Source: Alphaproteobacteria bacterium (GTDB taxonomy: Bacteria > Pseudomonadota > Alphaproteobacteria > Bin95). From it: a stretch of DNA of 64,000 bases. The stretch's first letter is position 1; each line of letters opens with the position of its first letter. Location of the stretch: the NCBI GenBank assembly GCA_965205265.1, contig CBDBGH010000003.1:3776001-3840000 (forward strand), given 5' to 3'. The notes under the pieces were generated by a model. The model searched no databases, was not told the DNA's origin, and was given only the letters and a program-made list of their open reading frames with translations. Below, piece after piece: positions 24,217 through 53,421 of this stretch. Both the position numbers and the translations under genes were made by a program.

Positions 24217-24286
24217 ACCGGACAGGGCGGTCGCAGTGAGTGGCCCGGACAACTGCCGCCGGTCCAGATGAGGCGATACCGCCGAG

Positions 24287-25459: not shown

Positions 25460-25477
25460 CGCGACCTTCCTCTCGCC

Positions 25478-26964: not shown

Positions 26965-26990
26965 TGGCGCAGGTCTGGCGCAATGGCGCT
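26965..26990. repeat. TGGCGCA direct repeats, candidate integrase binding sites at the element end
   Basis: TGGCGCA at 26965 and 26976, TGGCGCT at 26984, abutting the premature methylase stop. Confidence 0.5.
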
Positions 26991-27783: not shown

Positions 27784-27784
27784 G

Positions 27785-40530: not shown

Positions 40531-40544
40531 GGAACGCAAGGAAC

Positions 40545-41339
40545 ATGCGCAAGAACAACGTCCTCGAAACCTGGAAGGCCGGCGGCGCGGTCGTCAATGG
40601 CTGGCTCGCGATCCCGAGCGGCTTCTCCGCCGAGGTCATGGCCGGCTGCGGCTGGGACAGCGTCACCATCGACCTCCAGCACGGCATGGTCGATTACACC
40701 GCCGCCGTGCCCATGCTGCAGGGCATCTCGCTCTCCGACGCCACGCCCATGGCGCGCGTGCCGTGGCTGGAGCCCGGCATCATCCAGAAGCTGCTCGACG
40801 CCGGCAGCTACGGCATCATCTGCCCGATGATCAACACCCGCGAGGAATGCGAGCTGCTCGTCGCGTGCTGCAATTACGCGCCCAAGGGCTCGCGCAGCTT
40901 CGGCCCGATCCGCGCCGTCATGTATGCAGGGGCCGATTACGGCCGGCACGCCAACGACACGGTGCTCGCGATCGCGATGATCGAGACGCAGCAGGCCATC
41001 GACAATCTGGACGACATCCTGTCCACGCCCGGCCTCGACGGCATCTATGTCGGCCCCTCGGACCTCTCGCTCTCGCTCGGCCACGCGCCGCAGCTCGACA
41101 CCGAGGTGCCGGAGGTGGTGGCGGCCATCGACACCATCCTCGCCGGGGCGAAGAAGCACGGCGTGCCGGCCGGCCTGCATTGCGGCTCGCCGGAATACGC
41201 CGCGCGGATGTTCGAGAAGGGCTTCCAGCTCGCCACCATCGCCAATGACAGCCGCCTGATGGCGGCAGGCGCCACGGCCGCGGTCGCCGCCCTCAAGGGC
41301 AAAATGGCCGACAGCAACATCTCCGGCAGCCCTTACTGA
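40545..41339 (+). CDS. HpcH/HpaI-family aldolase
   Basis: IDLQHG, LDAGSYGIICPM, MIET, YVGPSDL. Confidence 0.92.
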   Translation: MRKNNVLETWKAGGAVVNGWLAIPSGFSAEVMAGCGWDSVTIDLQHGMVDYTAAVPMLQGISLSDATPMARVPWLEPGIIQKLLDAGSYGIICPMINTREECELLVACCNYAPKGSRSFGPIRAVMYAGADYGRHANDTVLAIAMIETQQAIDNLDDILSTPGLDGIYVGPSDLSLSLGHAPQLDTEVPEVVAAIDTILAGAKKHGVPAGLHCGSPEYAARMFEKGFQLATIANDSRLMAAGATAAVAALKGKMADSNISGSPY

Positions 41340-41423
41340 GTGGCCAGGGGCCAGTGGATAGTGGTTAGCGGTTGGCAGACCGCGACGAAACGCTATCCAC
41401 TAGCCACCATCTACTGACCACTA
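41339..41423. repeat. inverted arrays of degenerate heptamer repeats forming a long imperfect hairpin
   Basis: AGTGGCC AGGGGCC AGTGGAT AGTGGTT AGCGGTT ... ATCCACT AGCCACC ATCTACT GACCACT between convergent genes. Confidence 0.6.
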
Positions 41424-41654
41424 CTCCGCGGGCGCAGCGGGCCGTTCGTTGCGGCCGACGATATAGGCTTCGAGGAAGTCCATCTTGCCTTCGAGCCGGC
41501 TCAGCCGGTCGCGGATTTCACGCATCTCCGCCTCGAAACCGTCCATGCGGGCGTCCAGCCGGTCCATACGGCCGCCGAGGCTTTGCTGTCCTTTCAGGAC
41601 GATGCCCGCCAGCGCAATGCCGACGCCAAGGATCGCAATCAGTTCGGGGGTCAA
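41421..41654 (-). CDS. small membrane-anchored coiled-coil protein (77 aa)
   Basis: GGGGAGG RBS and TTG start; TPELIAILGVGIALAGIV then RMDRLDARMDGFEAEMREIRDRLSRLEG. Confidence 0.7.
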   Translation of the reverse strand: MTPELIAILGVGIALAGIVLKGQQSLGGRMDRLDARMDGFEAEMREIRDRLSRLEGKMDFLEAYIVGRNERPAAPAE

Positions 41655-41756
41655 GGATGTCCTCCCCAGCCACATGTTGCCGGCCGTCATGCGACCTTGC
41701 CGCGACCTGCGCCGGCAATCAAGGGAAATCCCTGCCCGCCCGGTCAGGGCTCCGCC

Positions 41757-42305
41757 CTATTCCGCCTTCCTGCGGTCCAGCAGGGCGGCGGCGAGCGCGG
41801 CGAGGCCGGGGGCGGGCTGGCCGGCGGCGAGCGCCTTGTCGCGCGAGCGCTCATGCACCGCCACCCCGAGCACCGCGAGCGCCACGCCCCACATGGCGCT
41901 GAGCGAGGCGGCCGCCGCCAGGATCGCCGGCGCGTCGGTCGGGTGCGCCATCACCGCCCAGGCGATGGCGGCCATCTGCAGCGCCCAGGCGGCCGTCACC
42001 GCATAGCCGAAGGTCGGCCGCCAGCGGCGCACATAGGCATCTTCCGTGCGGGTCTCGGCGCGCATGGTGGCGTTGACCTCGCGCAACGCGGTCTCGGCCT
42101 CGCGCGAGCGCGCCTTCACCTCGATGCGCCGGTTCGCGGCGTCGAGCGCTTCCGGGGCGACGCCGCCGTTCCTGAGCACGCCGTCCACCTCGCGCAGCGC
42201 CTTGGCGGCGGCATCGGCGGCCGGATTGTCGAGCGCCTCCAGACCTGCGCCCGCGAGGCGCGCGATCAGCGGCAGCCCGATCTGGGCGAGAAGTGCGGGA
42301 ATCAT
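41757..42305 (-). CDS. 3TM-type holin
   Basis: WRPTFGY motif followed by transmembrane segments; last gene of the phage-like operon. Confidence 0.75.
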   Translation of the reverse strand: MIPALLAQIGLPLIARLAGAGLEALDNPAADAAAKALREVDGVLRNGGVAPEALDAANRRIEVKARSREAETALREVNATMRAETRTEDAYVRRWRPTFGYAVTAAWALQMAAIAWAVMAHPTDAPAILAAAASLSAMWGVALAVLGVAVHERSRDKALAAGQPAPGLAALAAALLDRRKAE

Positions 42306-42319
42306 GGGTTCGTCCTTCT

Positions 42320-43780
42320 TCAGATGCGGAAATTGCTGCGGGCGCGGCCGGGCCGGGCGCCCCGCCGCCAGTCATTGCGGGGCGCGGGGCTCACCGGCGA
42401 AAGCCGCCATGGCTCCGCCAGCAGCGCGCCCGCCGCCGCGTCCAGCCCGTCGTCCCGCCCCCTGCCCTCGGGCCGCCATTCCCGCAATTCGCGCAGGAAG
42501 GGGGTCTCGAACACGCTCGCATGGGCGGAAAGCCTGCCCGCGGCCAGCGGCGCGTCGAAGGCTTCCAGAATGCGCTCATGCTTCGGGCGGTGGTTCTTTT
42601 TCTCCACCACCGACGCACCGTGCCCTTCCCGGCCGAGCTCTCCCTTCAGAATACCCGGCAGGAAGATCCCGACTCCGTTCGCTTCCACATAGACGACCGG
42701 CAGGAACAGCTCTCGCACATGCGCGGCCATCCGGCGGCAAAGCTGCGTCGCCGCGTCCTCGGAGTCTTCCGGTTCGCGATGGATATAGGCGACCCGGTGC
42801 AGCAGCCGCCGGCCGAGATCGTCGGTGAAGACGGCCGCCAGCACATTGGCGTCGCCCTTCTCCCGCTTGCCGTAGGCCGGGTCCCACCAGCCCGAGGCGG
42901 AAACCAGCCGCCGGCCTTCCAGCCACAATTCCGGCCGGCCGCCGGCCTCCCTGTATTCGAGCTCGCCCTCGTAACGGCGCAGCCAGTCCGCGTTCAGCCG
43001 GCCCTCCACCGCCTGCACGGGCTCCAGCAGCATCTGGCTCTCATAACGCGCGGGGCCTGTATGACGGCGGATTTCCGCAATCGCCGGCGACGGGTAGCGC
43101 GCCGGCCAGGACGCCTCGCGAAGCGGCTCCTCCTTCCGCCGGAAGCCCCAGAGGAAGGGCCGCTTCTCGTCCTCCTCCGGCCGCGGGTCTTTCGCATAGA
43201 TGGAGTAGTAGCTGTGCGGCGTGCCGCTGTAGATCCGGAAGCCGCCAGGGCTCAGCACATAGTCGATCTCGGAGAGCCGGGCGCGCAGGTCGGCCCGCTT
43301 CGCCGGCGTGCCGCAGGTGTTCGGCACCTCGACATCGTCGCAGATCACGACATCGGCATGCGCGCCGGTGATATTGGCGCCGATGCCGCGCGCCAGCAGC
43401 GAAGGGTCGCGCGAAACGGTCTTGCGCGAAACGGTCAGCCGGTCGGCCGCCCATTCCTCGGCCAGTTTCGGGCGCAGCGCCCCGGTGTCGGGATGGCGCT
43501 CCAGAATGCGGCGCACGGTGCGCACCATTCTGGCGGCGAGCGGCGTCTCCGCCGACAGCACCAGGATGCGCCGGTCGGGATCGCGCCTGAGCATCCACGC
43601 GGACAGCAGGCCGAGCAGGGTCGATTTGCCCGCGCCCCGGAAAGCCATCAGCAGCATTCGGCGCGCGCCCTCTGCGATCCGCCCGTCGAGCCATCCGGCA
43701 ATGCGCCGGTGGAGCGCCGGCGTCGCGATCCTCTGGGTCCGGTTCCAGGCGTCGAGGAAAGAGGAGAAGGTCGTGTCCAT
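42320..43780 (-). CDS. phage terminase large subunit
   Basis: AFRGAGKS Walker A, ITGAHADVVICDDVE Walker B, GTPH, WDPA and DDGLDA nuclease motifs; GGGAGG RBS. Confidence 0.92.
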   Translation of the reverse strand: MDTTFSSFLDAWNRTQRIATPALHRRIAGWLDGRIAEGARRMLLMAFRGAGKSTLLGLLSAWMLRRDPDRRILVLSAETPLAARMVRTVRRILERHPDTGALRPKLAEEWAADRLTVSRKTVSRDPSLLARGIGANITGAHADVVICDDVEVPNTCGTPAKRADLRARLSEIDYVLSPGGFRIYSGTPHSYYSIYAKDPRPEEDEKRPFLWGFRRKEEPLREASWPARYPSPAIAEIRRHTGPARYESQMLLEPVQAVEGRLNADWLRRYEGELEYREAGGRPELWLEGRRLVSASGWWDPAYGKREKGDANVLAAVFTDDLGRRLLHRVAYIHREPEDSEDAATQLCRRMAAHVRELFLPVVYVEANGVGIFLPGILKGELGREGHGASVVEKKNHRPKHERILEAFDAPLAAGRLSAHASVFETPFLRELREWRPEGRGRDDGLDAAAGALLAEPWRLSPVSPAPRNDWRRGARPGRARSNFRI

Positions 43781-43836
43781 CGAACCTCCCTTGAATGGTG
43801 GATAGCGGCCGGCGGTCAGCGCTTCCCGGCCGGCGT

Positions 43837-44016
43837 TCAACGCCGGAGCGCGTCGATCTTCTCCGCCAGCACGGCGAGCGCGCGCGTATTGGCGACGATG
43901 ACGTCGAGCACCAGCTGGCGGCCGCGGGCATCGCGGTGCAGCAGCCAGACGGCAAGGCCCCAGCCGAGCGCGAGCGGCCCGTATTCGGCGAAGACCCTGA
44001 GCGCGAGCGTGTCCAC
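43837..44016 (-). CDS. small membrane protein (59 aa)
   Basis: One TM segment (YGPLALGWGLAVWLL) plus short coiled coil; GTG start inferred. Confidence 0.55.
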   Translation of the reverse strand: MDTLALRVFAEYGPLALGWGLAVWLLHRDARGRQLVLDVIVANTRALAVLAEKIDALRR

Positions 44017-44026
44017 GGGCCGCCCG

Positions 44027-44443
44027 TCAGCCGGTTCGCCGCGGCGCGCGAAGCGCGAGCAGCCCGCCCGTCCGGCGCAGGAGGCCCAGCCGTTCGAGCC
44101 GGTCTGCATGGGCGCTGTCGGCCCGGAGCGAGGCGAGGCGCCGCGAGGCGGCCGCCCCCGCATGACGGCCCTCCCGCTCGCTTTCGGCGGCAAGCCCGCC
44201 CAGCAGCGCGGCGGCCGAGCCGGCGTCGGAGCCGGTGCCGGCCGCGCCGAACCGGGCACGGGCGCGGGCCAGCGCCTGCTTCAGCCGGCGCCGCCGCAGG
44301 CGTTCGCGCTCGGCGGCGCCGGCGCGGACATCGGCGGCCTGCGCGCCCGCGGCGGCGCGGCGCCGGGAGGCCGCCTCGGCGGCGGAGGCTTCGGCGAGCA
44401 GGGCATTGCCCGCCGCCAGGGCTACGGGGAGAAGTGCGCTCAT
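44027..44443 (-). CDS. putative internal virion protein
   Basis: Ala/Arg-rich helical protein with ARFGAAG...GS motif, directly after the tail tubular B gene as in podoviruses. Confidence 0.55.
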   Translation of the reverse strand: MSALLPVALAAGNALLAEASAAEAASRRRAAAGAQAADVRAGAAERERLRRRRLKQALARARARFGAAGTGSDAGSAAALLGGLAAESEREGRHAGAAASRRLASLRADSAHADRLERLGLLRRTGGLLALRAPRRTG

Positions 44444-46317
44444 ATGTCTGTCACCTTGAGTTCGGTTGCAGCGGAAAGGAGGTGGAAGGGAAGCGGGCTC
44501 TCATCCTCGATGCGCCAGAGCGGGGCCGCACCGTCGCGCCGCCAGCCGCCCGCGCCGAGCGAGACATCGCCGGTGAAGGCGCCGTCGCCGAGCGCGGCCC
44601 GGCGGAAGCCGAAGCCCGTGTCGCAGCGCAGCGCGCGGGTGCGGTCGAGACGGAGCGCCAGCCGCACCGCCCGGTGGGCCACGCCCTGCATCGCGCCCCG
44701 CGCAAGCTGGACGCCGGGCGGGAGCGGTTCGACCGTGTGGGTGAAGGGAAGCCCCGCCTGGACGGCGCGCGCCGGCGCGTCGAGCTGGATGCGCCCGCCG
44801 GAGACCCGGAGGCCCGAAAGCGCCTTGCCGTCGGCGACGGCGGCGACCTCCCGGCCTTCGAGATGGGCGAGGCCGCCCCAGGAGCGGGTGGGGTTCGCCG
44901 CCGTTCCGGCGACCGCGGCGTCCAGGCCGAGCGCCTCGTCGAAGCGCTCGACCGAATAGCGCCCGTCGCGCTCTACCAGCGCCCAGGCCCGGCCGCCCGC
45001 AACCGCCGCCGACCGGAAAGTCCCGTCGGTCTCCAGCCGCGTCCAGGCATGCACGCCCTCGGCCCGCCAGAGCGTGAGCGCGGCGATGGACCCGTCGCCC
45101 ATGACGACCGACAGCCGCCGGGCCGCCTCGTCCCAGACGATCTCGACCGGCGCGGCGAACAGGTGGCTGGCCAGCAGCGCCAGGTCCTGCGCCCGGTAGG
45201 CGAGCTCGGCATCCGCAAACAGGAACTCGCGCAGCTCGCGCCCGTTGCGGGCCAGGAACATCACGGCGCCCTCGACATCCACCGGCCGGACGGCGCGGTC
45301 GGCGGGCGAGCCGATGCGCGTCTGGCGGCGAAGCTGGATCGAGGCGGGCGTGAGCGGGTCGCCGGAGACGGTCCATTCCGCGCCCGAGGTGAATATCTGC
45401 AATTGCCGCCCGGACATGACCGCACGCACCGCATTCGCCTGGTCCGCCAGCAGCGGGAAGGCGATGGCCTCGTCGTCCAGCCCCTCGCCGGGGTCGAAGT
45501 CGAAATAGGCGCCCGAGCGTGAAAGCCAGAGCCGGTCCGGCAGCGAGCGCGATCCGCCGATCGCCAGCCTGTCCTGGTGGAACACGACCGAGACCGGCCA
45601 GCCGCGCCGGGCCGAAAAGGCAGGCTCCTGCCAGTCCGCGGTCGCCGCCGTGCCGCCCGCAAGCGTGCCCGTGACATCCGCCTCGGCCTCCGTCGCGGAG
45701 ACGACCCGGACGATCCGGACTTCGTCCTTGCCGATCCGGAAGGGCTGGCCCGCATCCCCCGCCGCGAAGACGCCGGCCGAGGCGGTGAGCCGGACGCGGC
45801 CCGAAGCCGCCGAGGCGGCCAGCGTCACCGAAGACGCGGCATAGCGGTGGTAGGGCTGCATCGACCGCCCGCCCCGCTCGGCCCATTCCCAGGGCGCGAT
45901 CCGCCAGTCGTCCTGCCCCCGGCGCGCCACGGTTCGCGGCGAATAGTCGGGATGGACGACCAGCAGCGTGTCGGCGGTCTGCGTCCAGTTGAGCCCGGCC
46001 AGATCGGCTTCCTTCCAGGGCGCGGCGACGAGCGCCGTCCGGACGCCGTTCCTGTAGATCCGGAGCGCCCGGTCGGTGAACAGCAGCAGGTAGCTCTCTT
46101 CCGTGTTGAACTCGAAGGCGGCGAGCCGGCCGGGGCCGGGCGCGGCCTCGACGAAGGCGAGCCCCGGCCGCCGCGAAAGCCCGCCCGTCGGGTGGACGGT
46201 GACATTGCGCAGCCGGCGCGCGCCGTCGCGATAGGCCGCGAGGTCGGGCCGTCCGGCGAGGCGCGGGCCGAGCTCGCCCGCGCTGAAATTGGTCTTGAGC
46301 GTGTTGATCCGGGTCAT
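44440..46317 (-). CDS. podoviral tail tubular protein B / nozzle (T7 gp12-like)
   Basis: NFSAGELGP..GRPDL start, GGLSRRPG, GWP..V.FHQDRL..GG. Confidence 0.85.
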   Translation of the reverse strand: MTRINTLKTNFSAGELGPRLAGRPDLAAYRDGARRLRNVTVHPTGGLSRRPGLAFVEAAPGPGRLAAFEFNTEESYLLLFTDRALRIYRNGVRTALVAAPWKEADLAGLNWTQTADTLLVVHPDYSPRTVARRGQDDWRIAPWEWAERGGRSMQPYHRYAASSVTLAASAASGRVRLTASAGVFAAGDAGQPFRIGKDEVRIVRVVSATEAEADVTGTLAGGTAATADWQEPAFSARRGWPVSVVFHQDRLAIGGSRSLPDRLWLSRSGAYFDFDPGEGLDDEAIAFPLLADQANAVRAVMSGRQLQIFTSGAEWTVSGDPLTPASIQLRRQTRIGSPADRAVRPVDVEGAVMFLARNGRELREFLFADAELAYRAQDLALLASHLFAAPVEIVWDEAARRLSVVMGDGSIAALTLWRAEGVHAWTRLETDGTFRSAAVAGGRAWALVERDGRYSVERFDEALGLDAAVAGTAANPTRSWGGLAHLEGREVAAVADGKALSGLRVSGGRIQLDAPARAVQAGLPFTHTVEPLPPGVQLARGAMQGVAHRAVRLALRLDRTRALRCDTGFGFRRAALGDGAFTGDVSLGAGGWRRDGAAPLWRIEDESPLPFHLLSAATELKVTDI

Positions 46318-46874
46318 GCCCTGGCCTCGATCAGCGGGAAACGGAGCGGCGCGCGCGCCGGGTCCTGGAGCGCGTCCGTGCGCCGGGCGCGGCGAAGCGC
46401 TGTGTCCGCCAGCCGCTGAAGCGCCTCCGCGCGGGACGTATTCTCCGTCACCGGCAGGCAGAGGGCGGCGGCGAGATGGGCGGCGAGCGCATCCGCGAAC
46501 CAGGGCGGGAACTCCGCCTCCCCGGCGCGGAAGACATAGGCGAGCCGGAGCGGGGCCGTATGGGCATGCAGCCTGCCGCCGGCGATGCGCCAGCCGGTTT
46601 CGCGCCCCTCCCCCACGGCCAGCGCATTCAGGAAACCGGCCGGCAGCCGGAAGGCGTGCGCGAAGCCGTCGAGCGGCGCCTCCGCCGCCGGCGAAAGCTC
46701 CGCCTCTGCCGTGGCGAAGCGCCAGGCATGGCCCGCAAGCAGCGTGTCGCGGAGGGTCGGATAGAGCGCGGCGGCGGTGCGCGCCTCGAGGGTCGCCTCC
46801 GCGAAGTCGGAAATCGGGAGCGCACCGAGCCGGACGAGCGCCTGGCTCGCGATCTGGACGGCGGTCAGCGCCAT
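46314..46874 (-). CDS. podoviral tail tubular protein A / adaptor (T7 gp11-like)
   Basis: IASQALVRLGA, HAWRFA, FRLPAGF; AAGGAG RBS. Confidence 0.82.
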   Translation of the reverse strand: MALTAVQIASQALVRLGALPISDFAEATLEARTAAALYPTLRDTLLAGHAWRFATAEAELSPAAEAPLDGFAHAFRLPAGFLNALAVGEGRETGWRIAGGRLHAHTAPLRLAYVFRAGEAEFPPWFADALAAHLAAALCLPVTENTSRAEALQRLADTALRRARRTDALQDPARAPLRFPLIEARA

Positions 46875-46953
46875 GAGGGACGTCTCCTTTCTGGAATATG
46901 CGGGGATGGCGGATGGCGGCCGGTGGACATGCCGTCCACCGGCCGCCGGTCCG

Positions 46954-47313
46954 TCAGGCCGCCAGCACGCCGACCCGTTCGAGCGCGCGGATGACCGCGT
47001 TGACGGCGGTGCGCGCCTCGGCATCGACGGTTGCCCCGCCGGCCGCGTCGGCCACCGCCGCCTGGGTCTCCCAGTCGGTGGTGAAGCCGACCCCGACATT
47101 GCCGTTGCGGTTGGACGACACGCGGACCAGCGCCGCGCTGTCGTCCGCGCCGTTCAGCGCCAGCATGTCGCCGGGGCGGAGCAGGTCGGCGGCGCCGTTG
47201 AAATAGCCGGCCGCGGTCATGTCGCCGTCGGCGTCCTCGGCGGACTTGTAGTGCCAGAAGGTGAAGCCGTTGGCATAGGCCAGCACGGAGAGGTTTGCGG
47301 ATTTGAACGCCAT
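46954..47313 (-). CDS. phage-like structural protein (possible capsid decoration)
   Basis: AAGGAG RBS; LSVLAYANGFTFWHY...GYFN; lies between capsid and adaptor genes. Confidence 0.65.
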   Translation of the reverse strand: MAFKSANLSVLAYANGFTFWHYKSAEDADGDMTAAGYFNGAADLLRPGDMLALNGADDSAALVRVSSNRNGNVGVGFTTDWETQAAVADAAGGATVDAEARTAVNAVIRALERVGVLAA

Positions 47314-47341
47314 TGCTCGGGCGGTCTCCTTTCTGTTCCGG

Positions 47342-48160
47342 TCAGTTCTCGAGGCAGCGCATGGTCACGACGCCCTCGGCGTCGATCAGCACGGCGCCCT
47401 GGCTCATCCAGTTGGCGACGAACCAGGCGGCGCGGTCGCCATGCCAGGTGATGTCGGTGGTGACTTCCGCGCCGGCGGCGTGGCCGACCGCGCTCTTGTG
47501 GTACCAGTGGCAGAGCCGGACCGAGTTGCTGAGCGTCAGCCCCGAATGCGGCAGCCAGAGCGTGCCGAGCCAGCGCTTGGCCTGGGTGCCGCGCCAGGGC
47601 AGGTCCTCCGCGCCGACATAGTCGGCATTGGCGAACTCCTCGATCTTCATGAGGTCCGACCACTGCTTCCAGCCGATGACGGCCGTGCGCTCGCCGTCGT
47701 CCGGCACGTCGGCCTGGCCCAGCATCTCGAAGGCGGTGAGCACCTTGTCCTTCGTCAGCCCGTCCGTGTCGGTGCCGGCATGGTTGGTCGAGCCGTCGAG
47801 CGCGGCGGCGATGAGCTGGTCGGTCTTGCGGCCGAGCGCATAGGCGCCGGCCTTGGCGACCGTGTCGCGCTCGCCGCCGCCGATCTTGAGGTCGTCGAGC
47901 CGGTCCACCCACTCGCCGGCATAGTAGTCGCGGAGATTGCACTCGACCGCGGCGTGATCGACATTCATCACCGGGATCTGGCCGTGCCGGGCCTTGGTGG
48001 CGGCGGCGCCGCGCCCGACCTTGCGGAAGGTCACGCTGGAGCCCATGACGCCGCGGCGGGTGCGCACCGTGTCGCGGAGCTTGGAGCCCTGGCGCTGATA
48101 GGCGTTGTGGACTTCGCCTTCGAACGCCTTGATGAAGGAAGGGGAAAGATCGACGGGCAT
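47342..48160 (-). CDS. major capsid protein (272 aa)
   Basis: FIKAFEGEVHNAYQRQGSKLR, AYALGRKTDQLI, MSQGAVLID; AGGAGG RBS. Confidence 0.88.
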   Translation of the reverse strand: MPVDLSPSFIKAFEGEVHNAYQRQGSKLRDTVRTRRGVMGSSVTFRKVGRGAAATKARHGQIPVMNVDHAAVECNLRDYYAGEWVDRLDDLKIGGGERDTVAKAGAYALGRKTDQLIAAALDGSTNHAGTDTDGLTKDKVLTAFEMLGQADVPDDGERTAVIGWKQWSDLMKIEEFANADYVGAEDLPWRGTQAKRWLGTLWLPHSGLTLSNSVRLCHWYHKSAVGHAAGAEVTTDITWHGDRAAWFVANWMSQGAVLIDAEGVVTMRCLEN

Positions 48161-48212
48161 ATTGCCTGTCCTCCTGTTGTGGTTTCAGGGTTTACTGTGT
48201 GCCGGCCCTTTG

Positions 48213-48899
48213 TCAGGCCGGGCGGTCGTCGGGATTGTCCGTCCCTTCGCCCGGATAGAGGCGCCGGTAGCCCTCCATCACCTGCCGGACGAGGACGGGG
48301 TCGCGGTCGCGCCAGTAGCGGGGGTCGCCCTGGAGGCGGCGCAGGCCGTCGAGCGTCGCCGCTCCGGCCGCCCGGTCGCCGTCGCGGCCGCCGAGGCCGG
48401 GCTCGCCCGCATCCATCAGCCGCTCCAGCGCCACCGCGCCTTCGACCGAGCCGATGAGCGCGTCGCCCACGCCGGCGGGCAGGTTGGCCGCCGCCCAGGC
48501 CTCCATCTGGCCCTTCGCGCGCCGCCAGCCGTCCTCGCCGCCATAGCGGTCCGCGAGGCGGGCGTCGCGCTCGGCCCGCTCCAGCTCGCCCGCGACCTCG
48601 CCTGCCAGCGGCAGCAGCAGCGACGACGCCATGTCATAGACGAGCTGGACCTGACCGTTGGTGAAGCCGGCCTCGTGCATCCGTCGGTTGGCTTCCGCGT
48701 CCGGGCCGCCGATCAGGCCGTCCAGCTCGAGCCGATAGTCCTCCGGGCTCGCGGGCGGGCGCTCCGCCGAGGCCAGGGCTCCGTAGGCCCCGACCAGCTC
48801 GTCGAGACGCACTTGGCCGGCGTCGGCGTCCCAGAACTCGTCCGGCAGGCCGTCCGGGCGAACCGGCGCCTCCATTTCGGTTTCGTTGTCCGTTTCCAC
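48213..48899 (-). CDS. capsid scaffolding protein
   Basis: RPDGLPDEFWD, PEDY, C-terminal DPRYW; position between portal and capsid. Confidence 0.78.
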   Translation of the reverse strand: METDNETEMEAPVRPDGLPDEFWDADAGQVRLDELVGAYGALASAERPPASPEDYRLELDGLIGGPDAEANRRMHEAGFTNGQVQLVYDMASSLLLPLAGEVAGELERAERDARLADRYGGEDGWRRAKGQMEAWAAANLPAGVGDALIGSVEGAVALERLMDAGEPGLGGRDGDRAAGAATLDGLRRLQGDPRYWRDRDPVLVRQVMEGYRRLYPGEGTDNPDDRPA

Positions 48900-49000
48900 G
48901 GTGCGGTGTCTCCTTCATGTCTTCGGAGTGAGGGGTTGAAAGAAAACGGGCGGCCCCCGGAGGAGCCGCCCGCGCGGGAATTGCGGTGCGGTTCGCCTCG

Positions 49001-50446
49001 TCAGGCGGCGCCGGGCAGCAGGTCCGGCGGCTCCAGCAGGGCGGGCGGCACGCCGAGGCGGGTGCCGAGCCAGCGCGCGGCGCGGCCGGTATCGACGGCG
49101 GCCAGCGCCCCGGGCCCGAGCCCCGCCACGGCGCCCAGCCAGGTGAGCGCCGCCCCCGCCTCGCGCCGCCCGGCCGCCTGCGCCAGCGGCGAGCGCAGCC
49201 GGAGCCCCGCTTCGCGCCCGTCAAGCGCGAAGGCCGGGACCTCGCCGCGCCGGGCGAGGATGGAGAGCGCGCGTCCGATCAGCGGCGTCAGCAGCTCGGA
49301 CTCCAGACGCCCGTAGGTCGCGCCGAGCAGCCGCGCCGTCTCCGCCGAGCGCTCCAGCACCTCGGTCGCGGTCATGGCCGGGCTCGCGGGCTCGGCCAGC
49401 CGGTCGGCGAGCAGCGCGTGGCGGATGCGTTTGCGCAGGTCCTCCAGCACGAGCTGCGACACGTCGAAACGCCCCGGTGCGGCAAGCGGCGTCAGCCCCG
49501 CCGAGCCCACCGCCTTCGGCATGACCGCGCCCGGCACCAGCTCCACCGCCGTCGGGTCGAGCACGCCGTCATCGTCGGCCTGCCAGATGCCGGTCGCGGC
49601 GATCGAGGCGTTCTTCAGGATGAGCTCCACCACCTTGTCGGCGGTCTTGATATCGGGCAGCGCCTTCATCACCGGCGAGCGCCCATAGACCTCGCCCGGC
49701 GCCTTCAGCCAGCGGAAGCAGATGAAGGGCGAGACCGCGAAGCGGCCCTCCGCCAGCATTTGCGCCGCCCGGCCGCCGCCGCCTTCCAGCACCGCCAGAT
49801 AGCGGTAGCCGGCGCCCTTGAGTTCGGGCGCAACGCCCTCCACGACGCCGAACGGGCCTTCGCCGGAAAGAACCGGCGCGCGGGGAAAGCGGGCGCGGAG
49901 CGCGGCCGGGCCGAGCTCCCGCCGCCGCCACACCCGGTCGAGCCGCCCTTCCGGCCCCTCCTCCAGCACCGCTTCGCGAAGCGGCACGGCGGTGAAGCGG
50001 AAGGCCGAGGCTGCGCCGAGCGCGCTTTCCTCGAACAGCAGGCAGCCCGTGCCCAGCGCCACGAGGTCCAGCAGCGCCTGGTGCATCTCGACCGCAAAGG
50101 CGGAGCGGTCCAGATGGCCCTGCAGGGCCTCGGCCGCCATGTCCAGCATCTCGGCGCTTTCGGGACCCGCCTCCTGTCCCGGCTCGAAGCCGACCCAGCG
50201 CTCGAAGGGCGGCGTGAGTTCGGCGAGCAGGCTGGCGGCAAGCTGCTCCGCGGCGTCGGCGGCGGTGGCGTCGTAGATGCGCCCGGCGGCGCCGGCGCCG
50301 CCATCGCCATTGACCGCCCCACCCGTCCCGTAGGGAAGGGCATGGGCCGCGCAGTCGCGCCAGAGCGCCTCCCAGGGACGCCGCCGGGCCTCGGCGCGGC
50401 GGTAGCCCGCCAGCAGAACCTCCGGATCCGGTGTTTCGGCAATCAT
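49001..50446 (-). CDS. portal / head-tail connector protein (T7 gp8-like)
   Basis: IYDATA, DLVALGTG, GEVYGRSPVMKALPDIK, MTATEV.ER. Confidence 0.93.
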   Translation of the reverse strand: MIAETPDPEVLLAGYRRAEARRRPWEALWRDCAAHALPYGTGGAVNGDGGAGAAGRIYDATAADAAEQLAASLLAELTPPFERWVGFEPGQEAGPESAEMLDMAAEALQGHLDRSAFAVEMHQALLDLVALGTGCLLFEESALGAASAFRFTAVPLREAVLEEGPEGRLDRVWRRRELGPAALRARFPRAPVLSGEGPFGVVEGVAPELKGAGYRYLAVLEGGGGRAAQMLAEGRFAVSPFICFRWLKAPGEVYGRSPVMKALPDIKTADKVVELILKNASIAATGIWQADDDGVLDPTAVELVPGAVMPKAVGSAGLTPLAAPGRFDVSQLVLEDLRKRIRHALLADRLAEPASPAMTATEVLERSAETARLLGATYGRLESELLTPLIGRALSILARRGEVPAFALDGREAGLRLRSPLAQAAGRREAGAALTWLGAVAGLGPGALAAVDTGRAARWLGTRLGVPPALLEPPDLLPGAA

Positions 50447-50450
50447 GTGT

Positions 50451-50465
50451 GTTCCCTTCATGTTC
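50451..50465 (-). promoter_or_regulatory. alphaproteobacterial LexA (SOS) box directly upstream of the portal gene
   Basis: GTTC-CCTTCAT-GTTC fits GTTC-N7-GTTC exactly; candidate promoter TTAACA-16-TAGGAT just upstream on the minus strand. Confidence 0.75.
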
Positions 50466-50515
50466 TAGACCATCCTACCCCATGTTTCTGATTTGTTAAC
50501 CCAGCGCGAGAAACG

Positions 50516-50938
50516 TTACCCATTATCGAGGAGGAAATCGTGCAACTGGCCGGGCGTAAGCACCCGCCAGGAGGCAATTCCGAGCACCCGCTTGGCCACT
50601 TCGACGCAGGTGGCGGGCAAGAGCGGCGCCGGGCGGAAGCGCCGCCGCCGCCGTGTCTCGACCACGGTGAAACCCCGCTCGCGGTAGAACCCGGCAAGGT
50701 CGAAGGCCGCCGGCACGGGCTGCACCGCGACATCGGTATAGCCGGCCAGCGGATCGACCGTGATCCAGCGCCCCGCCTCCTCCAGCGCGACGAAGCAATG
50801 GCGGAACCCCGGCCGGAGCAGCCGGAGCCAGCCGAGGTCCGCCTTGCCGGAAAACACCGCGAGCGCCCGCCCGCCGCCATTCGTAACGTTCGCCGCGTTG
50901 CGCGCGGCTGCGCCGTTGTGCCCGGAACTGCCCGTCAT
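50516..50938 (-). CDS. hypothetical protein, possible permuted papain-like (NlpC/P60) fold
   Basis: GFRHC ... TCVE ... TPGQL order of His, Cys and TP motifs. Confidence 0.6.
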   Translation of the reverse strand: MTGSSGHNGAAARNAANVTNGGGRALAVFSGKADLGWLRLLRPGFRHCFVALEEAGRWITVDPLAGYTDVAVQPVPAAFDLAGFYRERGFTVVETRRRRRFRPAPLLPATCVEVAKRVLGIASWRVLTPGQLHDFLLDNG

Positions 50939-51303
50939 GCCGCGGCCCCCCGGCGTCCGGAGCCGCCGCCGGCAACGATCCCCTTGGCGCGCAGCAGCTC
51001 CTCCAGCCGCGCCATGCCCTCTTCCCAGAGCCGGGCGAGCGGGCCGTGCGCCGGAGCTTCGAGGCGGCGGCCGAACCCGGTCAGCACCTGCAGGTGCCGC
51101 CGGGTGAGCACACCGGGCTTTACCAGCCGGCGCAGGCAGGCCAGCATGTCGAGCGGCGTGCAGGGCCGGCCACGGCCCTCATGGCCCGGCACGCCGCCAT
51201 CCTCGACCACGAGGCGCCAGGACATGAACCAGAACCAGGCTTCTTCGGCGTTCCTGAACGGCTTTTCGCCGCCGGAGCCTCGCGAAAAATCGGGAACAGG
51301 CAT
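50935..51303 (-). CDS. hypothetical protein, first gene of the phage-like operon (possible regulator)
   Basis: FRNAEEAWFWF, RPCTPLD, LWEEGMARLEELLRAKGIV; ATGA overlap with the next gene. Confidence 0.7.
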   Translation of the reverse strand: MPVPDFSRGSGGEKPFRNAEEAWFWFMSWRLVVEDGGVPGHEGRGRPCTPLDMLACLRRLVKPGVLTRRHLQVLTGFGRRLEAPAHGPLARLWEEGMARLEELLRAKGIVAGGGSGRRGAAA

Positions 51304-51316
51304 GAATCCCCCATCT

Positions 51317-51331
51317 GTTCTTTGAATGTTC
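51317..51331 (-). promoter_or_regulatory. alphaproteobacterial LexA (SOS) box
   Basis: GTTC-TTTGAAT-GTTC just upstream of ATG 51303, overlapping the -10 position for TTGACC at 51352-51347. Confidence 0.78.
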
Positions 51332-51396
51332 CGATTTTGCCTATGTGGTCAAATTCCTAGTGCATGTCAAGCGGATTTGTGCCTATGATGAATTCC

Positions 51397-52026
51397 ATGC
51401 TGACCCATTCCGAAGTCTGGGCCGCGATCGACGCGCTGGCGGACCATCACGGCCTGTCGGTATCCGGGCTCGCCAAGCGGTCGGGGCTGGATGCCACCAC
51501 TTTCAACCGCAGCAAGCGGACCACCAGGGGCGGGCGGCCGCGTTGGCCCAGCACGGAGAGCATCTCCAAGGCGATGGCGGCGACCGGCTGCGGCGTTTCG
51601 GGGCTGTTTGCCGAGCAATTGCGCCGCGAGGGCGCGCCGGCGAGTACCATCCCGGTGATCGGCCACGCCCAGGCGGGCCTCCACGGCTATTTCGACGATG
51701 CCGGCTACCCGGTAGGCGCGGGATGGGACGAGGTCGCTTTCCCGGACCTCGGCGACCCCAACGCCTATGCGCTGGAGATCGCGGGCGACAGCATGGAGCC
51801 CGTCTATCGCGACGGGGATATCGTGGTGGTCTCGCCGGCGGCCAGCCTCCGGCGCGGGGACCGCGTGGTGGCGCGCACCCGCGAGGGCGAGGTGCTGGCC
51901 AAATGGCTCGGCCGGCTGGGCGCGCGGCGTATTGAGCTGCATTCCTTCAATTCCGACCATGAGGACTACGTCCTCGCTCGAAGCGACCTCGACTGGATCG
52001 CCCGTATCGTCTGGGCCAGCCAGTAG
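51397..52026 (+). CDS. HTH plus S24 peptidase (CI/LexA-like) transcriptional regulator
   Basis: SGLAKRSGLDATTFN HTH, AQAG cleavage site, GDSMEP Ser and LAK Lys dyad. Confidence 0.92.
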   Translation: MLTHSEVWAAIDALADHHGLSVSGLAKRSGLDATTFNRSKRTTRGGRPRWPSTESISKAMAATGCGVSGLFAEQLRREGAPASTIPVIGHAQAGLHGYFDDAGYPVGAGWDEVAFPDLGDPNAYALEIAGDSMEPVYRDGDIVVVSPAASLRRGDRVVARTREGEVLAKWLGRLGARRIELHSFNSDHEDYVLARSDLDWIARIVWASQ

Positions 52027-52092
52027 CAGCAGCCCTTTCCGGGCCTCCCTCCCCTCGTTTCTTCCTGCCCTTGCGGGCTACATCGACAGTCG

Positions 52093-52761
52093 TTGACCGG
52101 AACTCATATCGATTGCCACCCGAACACTCTTCCCCCGCCCCGGGCCGGCGCGGTCCGGCGGTGGCGGGCCGGGCTGGCGGCGCTGGCGGAGCGGGATGCC
52201 CGTATCCGGATGGCGCTGGCCGAGGTCGGGGCGCCGCCCATGGCGCTCAGGGGGGCGGGCTTTGCGGCGCTCTTGCGGGCGATTGCGGCGCAGCAGGTTT
52301 CCGCCGCCTCGGCGCGGGCGATCTGGGGCCGGCTGGAGGAGGCTGCGGGCGGCAGGGTGACGGCGCGCGCCGTGCTGGCGCTCGGGCCGGAGGGGCTTCG
52401 CGCCGCCGGGCTCTCGCGGCCCAAGGCGGGTTACGCGCTCGACATCGCGGGGGCGCTTGCCTCGGGGCGGGTTTCGCTCTGGCGCATTGCGCGCATGCCG
52501 GATGAGGAGGCCGTCGCCGCCCTCTCGGCGCTGAAGGGCGTCGGGCGCTGGACGGCGGAAGTCTGGCTCCTGTTCGCGGCCGGCCGCCCCGACATCTGGC
52601 CGGCGGCCGACCTCGCGCTCTGCATCGCGCTCCAGAGAACCCTCGGCCTGGACGCCCGCCCGACGCCCGCCGAGGCGGCGCGCCTCACCGAAGCCTGGTC
52701 GCCCCACCGCAGCGCCGCCGCTATCCTCCACTGGCACATCTACCGCACCGCGCCTTCCTAG
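52093..52761 (+). CDS. DNA-3-methyladenine glycosylase (AlkA family)
   Basis: IAAQQVS, GLSRPK, KGVGRWTAE HhH, PAADL, WSPHRS; start uncertain. Confidence 0.88.
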   Translation: MTGTHIDCHPNTLPPPRAGAVRRWRAGLAALAERDARIRMALAEVGAPPMALRGAGFAALLRAIAAQQVSAASARAIWGRLEEAAGGRVTARAVLALGPEGLRAAGLSRPKAGYALDIAGALASGRVSLWRIARMPDEEAVAALSALKGVGRWTAEVWLLFAAGRPDIWPAADLALCIALQRTLGLDARPTPAEAARLTEAWSPHRSAAAILHWHIYRTAPS

Positions 52762-52767
52762 CCCGGG

Positions 52768-53421
52768 TCATCGCGGCCGCGAGCCTTGCGCGGCGAGGCC
52801 GGCGGCGAGCGCGGCGAGCACCGCCCAGCCCTGCCAGGAGTCCAAGGCGAGCAGGGTAAGCGCCGAGAGGGCGAGCCAGAGCGCCGGCGGGAGGCAGACG
52901 AGCGCCGTCCAGCGGTTGCGCGGCGCGAGCGCGACGAGGCCGAGCGTGGCGATGGCGGTCGGGTCGGGCGCAATCGCAACGATCTCGGCCTCCCGCCAGG
53001 ACCGCCCGTCCAGCAGCGCCAGCAGCGGCCAGACGAACAGCGCCGCCGCCAGGAGGCCGATGCCTGTTGCAGCGCCGGGTCCCCGCCGGGAGAAGGCGAG
53101 CCGGCCCGCGAGGCCGAGCGCCGCCAGCAGCGCGGCTTCCGCGTAGAAGCCCCAGGCGAAGCGCGGCGCGGCCCAGTTTACCGCCCCGTAGCCGAGCGCG
53201 ACGAACTGCCAGCCGGTCCAGAGCCAGACCGCGCCGAGCAAGGGGCCGAGCCGGCGTCCGGACGGCCGCCGGTCCTTGAGCAGCCTGTAGAGGAGCGCCG
53301 CGCCCGCCGCCAGCAGCAACGGCTGGACCGGCCAGAGCGCCTCGTTCTCCAGCGCGAACAGCCGCCAATAGACGCGCGGCTCGAACGGCAGCATATCCGC
53401 CAGCGCCCGGAACCCGTCCAT
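52768..53421 (-). CDS. integral membrane protein
   Basis: Multiple TM segments; MLPFEPRVYWRLF, APDPTAIATLG. Confidence 0.7.
   Translation of the reverse strand: MDGFRALADMLPFEPRVYWRLFALENEALWPVQPLLLAAGAALLYRLLKDRRPSGRRLGPLLGAVWLWTGWQFVALGYGAVNWAAPRFAWGFYAEAALLAALGLAGRLAFSRRGPGAATGIGLLAAALFVWPLLALLDGRSWREAEIVAIAPDPTAIATLGLVALAPRNRWTALVCLPPALWLALSALTLLALDSWQGWAVLAALAAGLAAQGSRPR

Follow-up and report, generated by a model that had tools for sequence, protein, structure and literature searches.

A T7-like, particle-only gene cluster inherited with the chromosome of alphaproteobacteria: a candidate gene-transfer-agent-like device in reduced form

In the window studied here, a stretch of 64,000 nt of alphaproteobacterial DNA, a tightly packed operon with gene overlaps of 4 nt codes for the parts of a short-tailed phage particle. 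The initial annotation read it as a domesticated particle under host LexA control. The question that this locus raises is whether it is the remainder of a phage or a module kept by the host and, if the latter, what the module would do. The host organism is known from metagenome assemblies only.

A virion module lacking replication and integration genes

The locus (positions 41757–52026) comprises 12 co-oriented genes on the minus strand, from a regulator-like gene to a holin gene, plus one divergent gene for an S24 (CI/LexA-like) repressor (Table 1). The podovirus-type content and the coordinates first given are borne out by family matches for the portal, capsid, adaptor, nozzle, large terminase (TerL) and holin. 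The S24 repressor, although inside the coordinates of that annotation, was absent from it, as was the role of orf140 as a candidate cell-wall hydrolase. Every frame at the locus is open, as had been claimed, with a GC content at third codon positions (GC3) of 0.84–0.93, the same as in the flanking genes. The element has an overall GC of 0.725, compared with a genome value of 0.681 and with 0.686 and 0.721 in its two flanks.

Family-profile searches detected no integrase or replication domains at the locus or among its neighbours, a tRNA search of the window returned none, and the direct repeats around the locus were just GC-rich chance matches rather than att-like sequences; the earlier statement that integrase, att site and replication genes are missing thus agrees with domain, repeat and tRNA searches alike. 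Two integrases at 24287–26911 are part of a separate island, 15 kb from the locus. No small terminase was recognised. Large ejection proteins of the T7 gp15/gp16 type were recognised neither here nor in the relatives inspected. Searches of the rest of the genome found no second copies of the element proteins, each of which matches only itself.

Table 1. Features of the locus, with positions in the window
Feature	Position	Strand	Basis
S24 peptidase/CI-type repressor	51400..52026	+	PF00717 E 1.5e-21; phrog_4 E 7e-26
Promoter-like element for orf122	51342..51370	-	TTGACA (51370-51365), 17-nt spacer, CACATA (51347-51342)
Box 1, GTTC-N7-GTTC (GAACATTCAAAGAAC on - strand)	51317..51331	.	exact; 10 nt downstream of -10 hexamer
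orf122, operon's first gene, regulator-like four-helix protein	50935..51303	-	AF2 model, pLDDT 83.7
orf140, candidate permuted papain-like (Cys-His) hydrolase	50516..50938	-	AF2 model, pLDDT 87.8
Internal promoter-like element TTAACA-16-TAGGAT (50499-50472) and box 2 (50451-50465)	50451..50499	-	consensus scan
Portal (T7 head-to-tail connector type)	49001..50461	-	PF12236 E 3.6e-118; phrog_332
Intrinsic-terminator-like hairpin and T-run, portal/scaffold gap	48946..48973	-	12 pairs, 10 G-C
Putative scaffold protein	48213..48899	-	position only; ORF conserved there in relatives
Major capsid protein	47342..48160	-	PF19821 E 4.7e-80; phrog_3437
orf119, small conserved virion-module protein	46954..47313	-	phrog_18004 E 2.2e-11
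Adaptor (tail tubular protein A type)	46314..46874	-	phrog_394 E 6.4e-42
Nozzle (tail tubular protein B type)	44440..46317	-	phrog_376 E 7e-135
gp14-like internal virion protein, 138 aa	44027..44443	-	phrog_418 E 6e-05
59-aa membrane protein, one hydrophobic helix	43837..44016	-	genus-specific
Large terminase, T7 type	42320..43840	-	NF033889 (termin_lrg_T7) E 2.4e-107; phrog_38
Holin, three transmembrane helices	41757..42305	-	PF11351 GTA_holin_3TM E 2.2e-12

The portal probably starts at the second ATG (50446), and the adaptor start was set at the Met common to relatives. For the scaffold, the ORF that had been claimed is present but its identity is not confirmed by profile searches, which gave no family match. 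orf119 is conserved in relatives 3′ of the capsid gene. The nozzle matched PF25675 weakly (17.9 bits, under the cut-off). The single small internal protein of the initial annotation proved to be real and corresponds to the gp14-like protein, which is homologous to the ORF that follows the nozzle in relatives; the versions in L016 and L022 score just under the T7_gp14 cut-off. A 140-aa ORF at 43837–44259 was rejected as the internal protein, only its last 59 residues being conserved. The 59-aa protein is 90–92% identical among loci of the window's genus (hereafter g1; the sister genus is g2) and has no match beyond the genus.

The first two genes of the operon were examined through structural models. 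In profile searches orf122 had no sequence-family match, although nine residues are invariant across 41 homologues; its fold matches are weak (phage-21 Q, Z 6.4; AlpA, Z 5.2 with 20% identity; sigma region 4, Z 4–5; all <8). All 49 homologues of orf140 share His47 and Cys111. A Foldseek search gave nothing at E≤0.001, and it is by way of fold matches to TseH (Z 7.3 over 109 aa, rmsd 3.2), YiiX (Z 6.5) and a Bacillus cereus cysteine peptidase (Z 5.4; all <8) that the modelled protein is a possible cell-wall hydrolase or lysin.

A divergent S24 repressor and two LexA-type boxes

The repressor ORF opens at 51364, but translation probably starts at the Met at 51400; relatives align from residue 9–12 on. 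Across 54 homologues its HTH block, A-G pair and GDSMEP serine motif are all retained. That it might be the host LexA was rejected (30 bits against a TIGR00498 cut-off of 111). The host has two canonical lexA genes, with an exact GTTC-N7-GTTC box upstream of each.

As read from the intergenic alignment, the promoter-like block of orf122 is conserved in g1, g2 and G045; it is missing from the consensus scan list because its second hexamer ends in A. The internal promoter-like element is kept in nine of the ten g1 loci. The two boxes reported in the initial annotation are both there and exact, each placed 6–10 nt 3′ of a conserved -10 element; box 2 also provides, through its spacer, the ribosome-binding site of the portal gene. 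Six of the ten g1 genomes have an exact box 1 (the spacer varies) and two more have it with one mismatch; it is also exact in G045. Box 2 is exact in seven of the ten g1 loci, with one mismatch in the remaining three. None of the eight g2 loci has an exact copy of either. The proposed wiring to host LexA is therefore plausible for this genus only, exact boxes being absent from g2. The motif alone is not rare, with 120 exact matches in the genome (~100 expected). The window has four (1.55 expected), a number that 4 of 100 shuffles reach. Box 1 is among just 14 boxes in the genome with an AT-rich spacer, as are the boxes upstream of both lexA genes. Several AT-rich-spacer boxes are found at IS630-like transposase genes. 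The hairpin between portal and scaffold is present in all five g1 loci with a short spacer, and changes in its stem preserve pairing. SOS control of the element is plausible. The predicted damage sensor that is conserved family-wide is the S24 repressor which the element itself encodes; the LexA boxes are genus-specific.

Relatives in other alphaproteobacteria

The capsid profile matches at least 572 species-representative loci. Among 401 evenly sampled alphaproteobacterial genomes it matches 69 (56 of 307 genera), 68 of them with one match, and capsid-positive genomes include some of 0.9–1.4 Mb. Capsid identity to copies in other bacterial families is 53–74%, and the gene order recurs across many families. 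Of 76 loci outside the genus, 53 had sufficient DNA upstream to show a divergent S24 repressor, and 36 of these have one; the nozzle was present at 54 of 62 loci and TerL at 31 of 48. In many Rhodospirillales-type genomes the element lies beside the class-I lysyl-tRNA synthetase gene (lysK), which flanks the element at 20 loci spread over several genera. The 131 flank ORFs of 34 relatives contained neither an integrase nor a replication domain; they include one HNH endonuclease and one DDE transposase.

Most family members retain a tail fibre or spike with a variable C-terminus. The window's genus has neither this gene nor the one for the phrog_31793 protein (~100 aa), which relatives keep upstream of TerL, and no copy of either was found elsewhere in the genome. 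A remnant of the lost region is visible in L015, the most basal member of the genus. By this comparison, the cluster in the genus is a reduced derivative.

Vertical inheritance under purifying selection

Of the 16 other genomes of the genus, 13 have the capsid gene, as do all ten of the sister genus, each with a single full-length copy except for G004, where a fragment lies at the end of a contig, and G025, where the gene is split in two. Within the genus the cluster is inherited vertically: gene order, site and flanks (HpcH … S24 repressor) are the same, and capsids are 91–99% identical. Across 21 genome pairs, which are non-independent, dS was 0.22–0.39 for the element and 0.17–0.33 for the host flanks (Pearson r 0.55). 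In the genus, dN/dS was 0.13–0.30 for ten genes and 0.42 for TerL, the highest of the confirmed genes, against 0.06–0.18 for the host flanks; in the sister genus it was 0.06–0.30 for element genes and 0.09–0.20 for dnaX, ybaB, recR and pyrD. One-site synteny, dS like that of host neighbours and dN/dS of 0.13–0.30 argue for a module kept by the host. The earlier view of domestication rather than decay is thus sustained, as is its expectation that sister species have the cluster at the same site and under purifying selection, and on these data the locus is not a recent prophage. Each genus is monophyletic in a capsid+adaptor+nozzle tree. The element sits at different sites in the window's genus and in the sister genus, which are non-sister in its tree; a degree of horizontal movement or re-acquisition may therefore have occurred.

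A different reading is that the genus cluster is a relic in the course of being lost: the ancestral device would have failed once the fibre and the small protein encoded upstream of TerL were gone, and what is left would be decaying slowly or be kept for a side use of single genes such as the repressor, holin or capsid. Four sister genomes do have inactivating lesions, namely a ~2-kb insertion in TerL (L012), loss of the left part and half of the nozzle (L013), an internal deletion (L006), and a deletion from portal codon ~40 through the holin that leaves the repressor alone intact (L123), but in eight of the ten genus loci with full context (the window's and L007–L015) every gene is open. Similarly, element dN is 2–3 times that of the host flanks, yet the low dN/dS ratios, at dS of ~0.2–0.46, are far from neutral. 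The higher ratio of TerL goes with drift at otherwise conserved positions (of the 115 columns conserved elsewhere, 14 show a substitution or deletion in one or more genus members, and some of these adjoin nuclease residues), whereas its Walker A, Walker B and nuclease aspartates are retained in ten g1 sequences. Since promoters, boxes and terminator are also conserved, and fibre-less copies persist in the lineages of L056, L081 and L111 as well, we regard a relic as unlikely.

A purpose other than gene transfer has a slightly smaller chance of being correct: lysis upon DNA damage could free public goods or DNA protected in capsids, the capsids could hinder related phages that invade the cell, or the particles could kill competitors. 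Such uses would fit the purifying selection on fibre-less variants and the lack of large ejection proteins in every copy inspected. The predicted switch resembles, by analogy, AlpR/AlpA and PrtR/PrtN of Pseudomonas aeruginosa, which are damage-induced self-lysis and pyocin switches, and lambdoid CI/Q: in all of them a self-cleaving S24 repressor is divergent from a small regulator heading a lysis or particle operon. orf122 differs from AlpA and Q in having no sequence-family membership, and its likeness to them lies in Z scores below 8. Against these uses stand the complete DNA-packaging motor that is kept, with conserved ATPase and nuclease motifs, and the fibre or spike of most members, whose variable C-terminus is as expected for a cell-binding device. 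A phage satellite (PICI or cf-PICI-like) that would build capsids by itself and depend on a helper for replication, fibres and mobility is very improbable. It would suit the presence of capsid, portal and terminase genes in a cluster that has none for replication, a repressor potentially responsive to a helper or to SOS, and the different sites in different lineages. However, the flanks of the 34 relatives lack integrase, att, primase and a replication origin module, the element has one fixed site with host-like dS and a single copy per genome, and no related helper prophage was seen.

Known phages and gene transfer agents

Identity to the nearest phages is 28–51%: for the capsid it is 44.5% with the closest complete phage and 51% with a phage fragment of 5 kb, and it is ≤32.5% for the nozzle and ≤33% for TerL. 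The capsid is thus closer to copies in other bacterial families than to any of them, which answers in the negative whether the closest homologues are complete phages. The closest complete phages are Pelagibacter phage Hodr and the HTVC type, Methylophilales phage MEP301 and Yersinia phages YeP4–6 (podophages without an RNA polymerase gene). In Hodr the nozzle, adaptor, small ORF, capsid, scaffold and portal genes are homologous and in the same order, but phages of this type have 32–37-kb genomes that also code for early functions, replication, large internal proteins and fibres.

With the RcGTA type (Rhodobacter capsulatus, Caulobacter; Rhodogtaviriformidae) the cluster shares a chromosomal head-tail-packaging organisation without replication or integration genes, a holin from one Pfam family (PF11351), and vertical inheritance with purifying selection in many genera. 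Control by a stress circuit of the host, possibly including anti-termination, is a further similarity that is predicted. The phage ancestry differs: RcGTA is siphovirus-like with an HK97-type head, whereas the T7-type portal, PF19821 capsid, adaptor, nozzle and T7-type TerL found here predict a short tail. The switch of RcGTA involves CtrA, GafA and quorum sensing, in contrast to the predicted S24 repressor switch, with or without LexA, of the present element. This candidate device also differs in having mainly Rhodospirillales-type hosts. For CcGTA, activation and anti-termination are reported (PMC11150451). FpGTA of Faecalibacterium is likewise a predicted podovirus-like GTA-like element with compact operons that include lysis genes; according to its description (PMC12946183), it differs in belonging to Firmicutes, in its two separate operons and in experimentally supported packaging of host DNA, which for the present element is predicted.

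Discussion

The reading that we favour, with moderate confidence, is that the locus belongs to an old T7-like 'particle-only' cluster, fixed in the chromosome and passed on with it in many alphaproteobacteria (for the most part Rhodospirillales-type), of which it is one copy, and that it is a GTA-like device, reduced in this genus. This reading follows from head, short-tail, packaging and lysis genes combined with a putative damage switch and inherited with the chromosome.

Regulation, particle formation, host-DNA packaging and transfer we infer as follows. In an undamaged cell the S24 repressor, and in this genus also LexA bound at the two boxes just downstream of the two promoters, would silence the operon. 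DNA damage would activate RecA, upon which the S24 repressor and LexA would cleave themselves. The Q/AlpA/sigma-4-like regulator orf122 would then be made and may help RNA polymerase read through the terminator behind the portal gene. A short-tailed head would be assembled from portal, scaffold, capsid, adaptor, nozzle and gp14-like protein, and the T7-type terminase would fill it. The packaged DNA would be that of the host, as the element has no means of replicating or excising. The holin, perhaps with orf140, would finally lyse the cell. Having lost the fibre or spike, particles of this genus, if made, probably adsorb poorly or differently. If the favoured reading is true, these alphaproteobacteria would carry a GTA-like device of a kind not described before, which at this locus is pared down and lacks the tail fibre.

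Gene content of the locus

Third-position G+C values of 0.8-0.95 marked the real genes in the window, the G+C content of which is 68%. The podovirus-type particle locus was found to comprise 12 tightly packed genes on the minus strand and one divergent gene on the plus strand, flanked by ordinary host genes (see the table). Family searches recovered the T7-like virion parts portal, capsid, adaptor, nozzle, gp14-like protein and large terminase (TerL), with the scaffold assigned by its position only. They agreed with the gene list of the initial annotation, with one correction on the small internal virion protein: a 140-aa ORF at 43837-44259 was rejected in its place in favour of the 138-aa gp14-like ORF. 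No gp15/gp16-like core proteins and no small terminase (TerS) were recognised at the locus, and a Pfam search of the small ORFs at E<=1 returned chance-level rows only.

The locus has no integrase, replication gene, tRNA or flanking direct repeat, and no integrase or transposase, att site, or replication/early module of a functional temperate prophage was detected in it or its neighbours. As looked for in a gene transfer agent (GTA), the locus thus lacks replication, integration and excision genes, and it occupies the same chromosomal site throughout the genus. The two integrases found elsewhere in the window (24287-26911) belong to an unrelated genomic island (19204-28750) that carries a 1670-aa Type ISP restriction-modification enzyme, a D12 adenine methyltransferase, an IS1595-type transposase and the tandem tyrosine integrases themselves (24287-25459 and 25478-26911). 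Low-GC stretches lie upstream of this island, at 8-14 kb.

Features of the particle locus, its predicted operators and its host flanks (window coordinates)
Feature	Position	Strand	Family match (E-value) or remark
HpcH aldolase (host flank)	40545-41339	+	
orf122	first minus-strand gene, reading down from 51303	-	without family match
orf140	second gene, after orf122	-	without family match
Portal, T7 type	third gene, after orf140	-	PF12236 (3.6e-118)
Putative scaffold	between portal and capsid	-	assigned by position alone
Capsid	after scaffold-position ORF	-	PF19821 (4.7e-80)
orf119	after capsid	-	phrog_18004
Adaptor	after orf119	-	phrog_394
Nozzle	after adaptor	-	phrog_376 (7e-135)
gp14-like internal virion protein, 138 aa	44027-44443	-	phrog_418 (6e-05)
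59-aa protein, one hydrophobic helix	after gp14-like gene	-	genus-specific
Large terminase (TerL), T7 type	after 59-aa gene	-	NF033889 (2.4e-107)
Holin, three helices	last gene	-	PF11351
S24 peptidase repressor, CI type	51364/51400-52026	+	PF00717 (above cut-off), phrog_4
HhH-GPD glycosylase (host flank)	52093-52761	+	
Box 1 (GTTC-N7-GTTC)	51317-51331		exact; 10 nt downstream of -10 hexamer
Box 2 (GTTC-N7-GTTC)	50451-50465		exact; 6 nt downstream of second promoter-like element, before portal

Two minus-strand ORFs, at 41421-41690 and 39001-39357, encode small proteins that combine a membrane helix at the N-terminus with a coiled coil. One such protein, orf89, had 16 further tblastn matches in the genome. 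A copy of it lies after the holin gene in the window, and between portal and scaffold in five sister genomes (loci L010-L013 and L015); in the four of these for which the match coordinates show the strand (L010-L013) it is on the opposite strand.

Inheritance and selection in the genus and its sister genus

Of the other 16 genomes in the genus, 13 have the capsid gene (91-99% identity), as do all ten genomes of the sister genus (62-70%); each has one full-length copy, except for a contig-end fragment in genome G004 and a gene broken in two in G025. At a comparable level the gene was found in none of ten genomes of the order's third genus. Within the genus the cluster always adjoins the HpcH gene and its gene order is constant; in the sister genus it is located between dnaX-ybaB-recR and pyrD. 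Over 21 genome pairs, dS was 0.22-0.39 for the element versus 0.17-0.33 for neighbouring host genes, and the two were correlated (Pearson r 0.55, the pairs being non-independent). Within the genus, dN/dS was 0.13-0.30 in ten element genes, 0.42 in TerL and 0.06-0.18 in the host neighbours. In the sister genus the element evolves like its neighbours, with ratios of 0.06-0.30 for the element and 0.09-0.20 for the flanking housekeeping genes. The synteny within the genus, the host-like dS and the low dN/dS of most element genes speak for a fixed, host-kept locus, as the initial annotation had proposed, and not for a decaying prophage.

Distribution across the class

A capsid profile identified at least 572 loci among species-representative genomes. 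When the class was sampled evenly, 69 of 401 genomes, representing 56 of 307 genera, contained a match; this was single in all but one of them, and genomes of 0.9-1.4 Mb were included. The best 80 of the at least 572 loci come mostly from Rhodospirillales-type organisms. Cultured carriers include Elioraea thermophila, Magnetospirillum fulvum, Caenispirillum salinarum, Telmatospirillum, Niveispirillum irakense and Falsiroseomonas bella, with Roseospirillum and Oleisolibacter as further cultured strains among these best 80 loci.

Outside the genus, 76 loci were compared for gene content. Of the 53 for which sufficient upstream sequence was available, 36 carry the divergent S24 repressor; a nozzle gene was present in 54 of 62 loci and a TerL gene in 31 of 48. 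The misses were largely at loci with scaffold-capsid insertions or a split layout. Insertions of 1.7 to ~6 kb between scaffold and capsid were seen at L008 (6238-8001), L053, L055, L076 and L050, which suggests that this gap is an insertion hot spot. At L078, L083, L088 and L066, the portal and scaffold genes follow the nozzle gene, or TerL lies upstream of the capsid gene, a layout that appears to be a rearranged or split version of one gene set. No integrase or replication domain was found in any of 131 flank ORFs from 34 loci. A class-I lysyl-tRNA synthetase gene (lysK) flanks 20 loci, which belong to several genera; ubiD often lies on its far side, and three loci also have GcrA and a DUF4743-NUDIX gene on the opposite side. 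In a tree built from capsid, adaptor and nozzle of 71 copies, members of the same genus clustered together and Elioraea was sister to Falsiroseomonas.

The dN/dS and dS values, the distribution, the lysK flank and the tree indicate vertical inheritance under purifying selection over a long divergence, as looked for in a GTA, with the caveat that the element occupies different sites in the genus and its sister genus, and that these two genera do not group as sisters in its tree. Comparison with the canonical lysK/ubiD/gcrA/NUDIX site failed in the window's own genome, in which these genes are scattered. The two sites, the tree positions and the untraceable canonical site therefore make some movement of the element between lineages possible. 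The ubiD search of this genome gave two matches of the same identity and length (C3:24880-26376 and C3:4656875-4658371), reflecting either a duplicated region or an assembly artefact; the genome has a contamination estimate of 7.3%, and the organism is represented by metagenome assemblies only.

Two runs labelled as sponge metagenomes (X7 and X20, one of them an RNA library) contained contigs 92-97% alike over most of window positions 40500-52800, so relatives of the genus occur in such samples. The RNA-labelled run, X20, was rejected as evidence of transcription: it represents a 92-97% relative, the host flanks were covered alike, and DNA carry-over is possible. Junctions in sequencing runs were left uncounted, their sides being short (20-27 nt) or the contigs those of other organisms.

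The S24 repressor and the LexA boxes

The divergent gene was ruled out as the host LexA: with 30 bits it falls short of the LexA model's cut-off (111 bits), and the genome carries two canonical lexA genes at other positions (C3:193286 and C3:5303943), each with an exact GAAC-N7-GAAC box upstream. Across 54 homologues the GDSMEP serine motif, a Lys, an A-G pair and an N-terminal HTH-like block are conserved, matching the catalytic Ser/Lys, the Ala-Gly site and the DNA-binding N-terminus of a predicted self-cleaving S24 repressor.

The GTTC-N7-GTTC motif occurs four times in the window (1.55 expected); genome-wide there are 120 occurrences, where base composition predicts ~100. With counts this close to expectation, the bare motif is weak evidence. 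The position and conservation of the predicted boxes add weight. Box 1 follows a promoter-like element (TTGACA, 17 nt, CACATA) that is conserved in the genus, the sister genus and a third family. It is exact in six of ten genus genomes and has one mismatch in two more; its GAAC repeats are constant and its spacer letters variable. The box 2 promoter-like element reads TTAACA-16-TAGGAT here, with TTGACA in most sister species, and the box itself is exact in seven of ten genus genomes, the other three having one mismatch. Its conservation has a second explanation, since its purine-rich spacer also serves as the portal ribosome-binding site. An AT-rich spacer is found in only 14 of the 120 genomic boxes, among them box 1, both lexA upstream boxes and one at an mmcB-like repair gene. 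Four others of this type are located at IS630-like transposase genes, which raises the possibility that the motif belongs to the ends of IS630-like elements.

Neither box was exact in any of eight sister-genus loci, and box 1 was present in one further family (genome G045). The motif thus lies in promoter regions and is kept in relatives, as expected of the alphaproteobacterial LexA operator, within the genus and not in its sister genus. The view that the locus is wired to host LexA is therefore credible for the genus, where the sites are predicted ones, and does not extend to the element family as a whole, across which it is the S24 repressor that appears to be conserved.

orf140, orf122 and the portal-scaffold terminator

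Foldseek searches of the PDB with the first two operon genes, orf122 and orf140, gave nothing at E<=0.001. The orf140 model (pLDDT 87.8) had permuted papain-like hydrolases as its best structural neighbours, led by the peptidoglycan-degrading effector TseH (Z 7.3 over 109 residues, rmsd 3.2) and including YiiX (Z 6.5) and a Bacillus cysteine peptidase (Z 5.4), Z values below 8 being treated as leads only. His47 and Cys111 were invariant in 49 homologues. By its modelled fold, orf140 is a candidate for the 'missing' lysin.

The orf122 model has four helices (pLDDT 83.7) and weak fold matches to the phage-21 Q antiterminator (Z 6.4), AlpA (Z 5.2) and sigma-factor region 4. A strong hairpin followed by a T-run lies between portal and scaffold, at 48946-48973, and was kept, with pairing-preserving changes, in all five genus loci with a short spacer. 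Together, orf122 and this terminator suggest a regulator-plus-anti-termination step.

A reduced, fibre-less form in the genus

Downstream of the nozzle gene, most relatives carry a gp14-like gene, a gene for a 400-890-aa protein, one for a ~100-aa acidic protein, and TerL. The first ~150-200 residues of the large protein are conserved and match tail-fibre/tail-spike families, the remainder being variable; the acidic protein belonged to phrog_31793 in 11 of the 13 ORFs tested. In the genus, only the gp14-like gene and the genus-specific 59-aa ORF lie between nozzle and TerL. The window copy therefore lacks the fibre that its relatives have, and a remnant of the phrog_31793 gene persists in the most basal member of the genus. 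The idea that the missing parts are encoded elsewhere in the genome was rejected: tblastn queries with six phrog_31793 proteins and with the fibre, gp14-like, 265-aa and Bbp19-like proteins of the sister genus yielded no credible match, only short ones (E 6e-4 to 0.3) on a repeated host family. Fibre-less copies were also found in Telmatospirillum and in a Geminicoccaceae-like group; flanks shared between the latter and the genus were considered and rejected, the identity being at paralogue level only (25-37%).

The Walker A, Walker B and nuclease aspartates of TerL were intact in all ten genus sequences; at 14 of 115 columns conserved elsewhere, one or more of these sequences had a substitution or a deletion. 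Four sister genomes carried lesions: a TerL gene interrupted by a ~2-kb insertion (L012), a locus that lacks its left part and half of the nozzle (L013), an internal deletion (L006), and a deletion from portal codon ~40 through the holin with the repressor left intact (L123). L123 (genome G001, 8140-9485) lies in the smallest genome of the genus, and its S24 repressor (88% identity) stands beside decayed remnants of orf122 and orf140. The loss of the fibre and phrog_31793 genes, the TerL drift and these lesions indicate that the genus copy is a reduced derivative. That the cluster is a relic decaying in this genus would account for the same losses, and is unlikely: judged by its substitution rates, the genus copy still appears constrained, though less so than the sister-genus element.

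Comparison with phages and known GTAs

The closest homologues are not in complete phages: the capsid is 44.5% identical to that of Pelagibacter phage Hodr, with 51% identity to one on a separate 5-kb phage fragment, and the nozzle and TerL reach at most 32.5% and 33% identity, respectively. Among the outcomes that the initial annotation had named as counting against a domesticated element, patchy distribution with relaxed selection and nearest relatives in complete phages were both decided in the element's favour.

RcGTA, the alphaproteobacterial model GTA, is siphovirus-derived, and the hallmarks of its family are the HK97-type capsid g5, the portal g3 and siphovirus tail genes. To our knowledge, it is largely missing from Rhodospirillales, and only a handful of GTA lineages are known. 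The locus does not belong to the RcGTA family (Rhodogtaviriformidae): it has a T7-type portal (PF12236), a PF19821 capsid, an adaptor and a nozzle, and shares with RcGTA only the holin family PF11351. The parts of the RcGTA literature consulted describe a siphovirus-type gene set that differs from the locus; PMC9254644, as far as consulted, treats RcGTA-type homologues, and in the main text of PMC9662315, supplements aside, 'podovir' occurs in the reference list only. A 2026 paper (PMC12946183, consulted in part) describes FpGTA, an element of Faecalibacterium, as the first podovirus-like GTA-like element. In the full-text literature searched, no account was found of a fixed particle locus, T7-like or podovirus-derived, in Rhodospirillales or any other Alphaproteobacteria. 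The locus is rated as a domesticated, GTA-like phage particle locus that arose independently.

Interpretation

The inheritance, distribution and phage-distance data fit one old domestication followed by descent with the chromosome. The locus is probably a host-kept, damage-induced particle locus of podovirus origin and GTA-like design, fibre-less here; that it actually transfers DNA is doubtful. A role other than transfer, be it programmed lysis, phage interference or killing, seems somewhat less likely than decay, and a helper-dependent satellite is very improbable.

Beyond the host-kept particle locus, a fuller reading is put forward tentatively, being possible as a whole rather than probable. 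The locus would be a second, independently domesticated GTA in Alphaproteobacteria, outside the RcGTA-bearing orders and derived from an RNAP-less T7-like podovirus. Its switch would consist of its own S24 repressor and a regulator of the Q/AlpA type, and its retention would predate the divergence of many Rhodospirillales-type families, the genus form being fibre-less, TerS-less and still under selection. If so, the particles, or damage-triggered packaging and lysis, would serve the host even without normal adsorption, for example by releasing capsid-protected DNA.

The locus is present in about one sixth of the sampled alphaproteobacterial genomes, including those of 0.9-1.4 Mb, and the existence of cultured carriers makes direct testing possible. 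The fibre-less window copy amounts to a natural test of which components of such a device stay under selection. If the locus works as proposed, phage particles would have been domesticated repeatedly in a single class of bacteria, and DNA exchange or programmed lysis in soil, aquatic and symbiotic bacteria would have a new route, linked to the SOS response.
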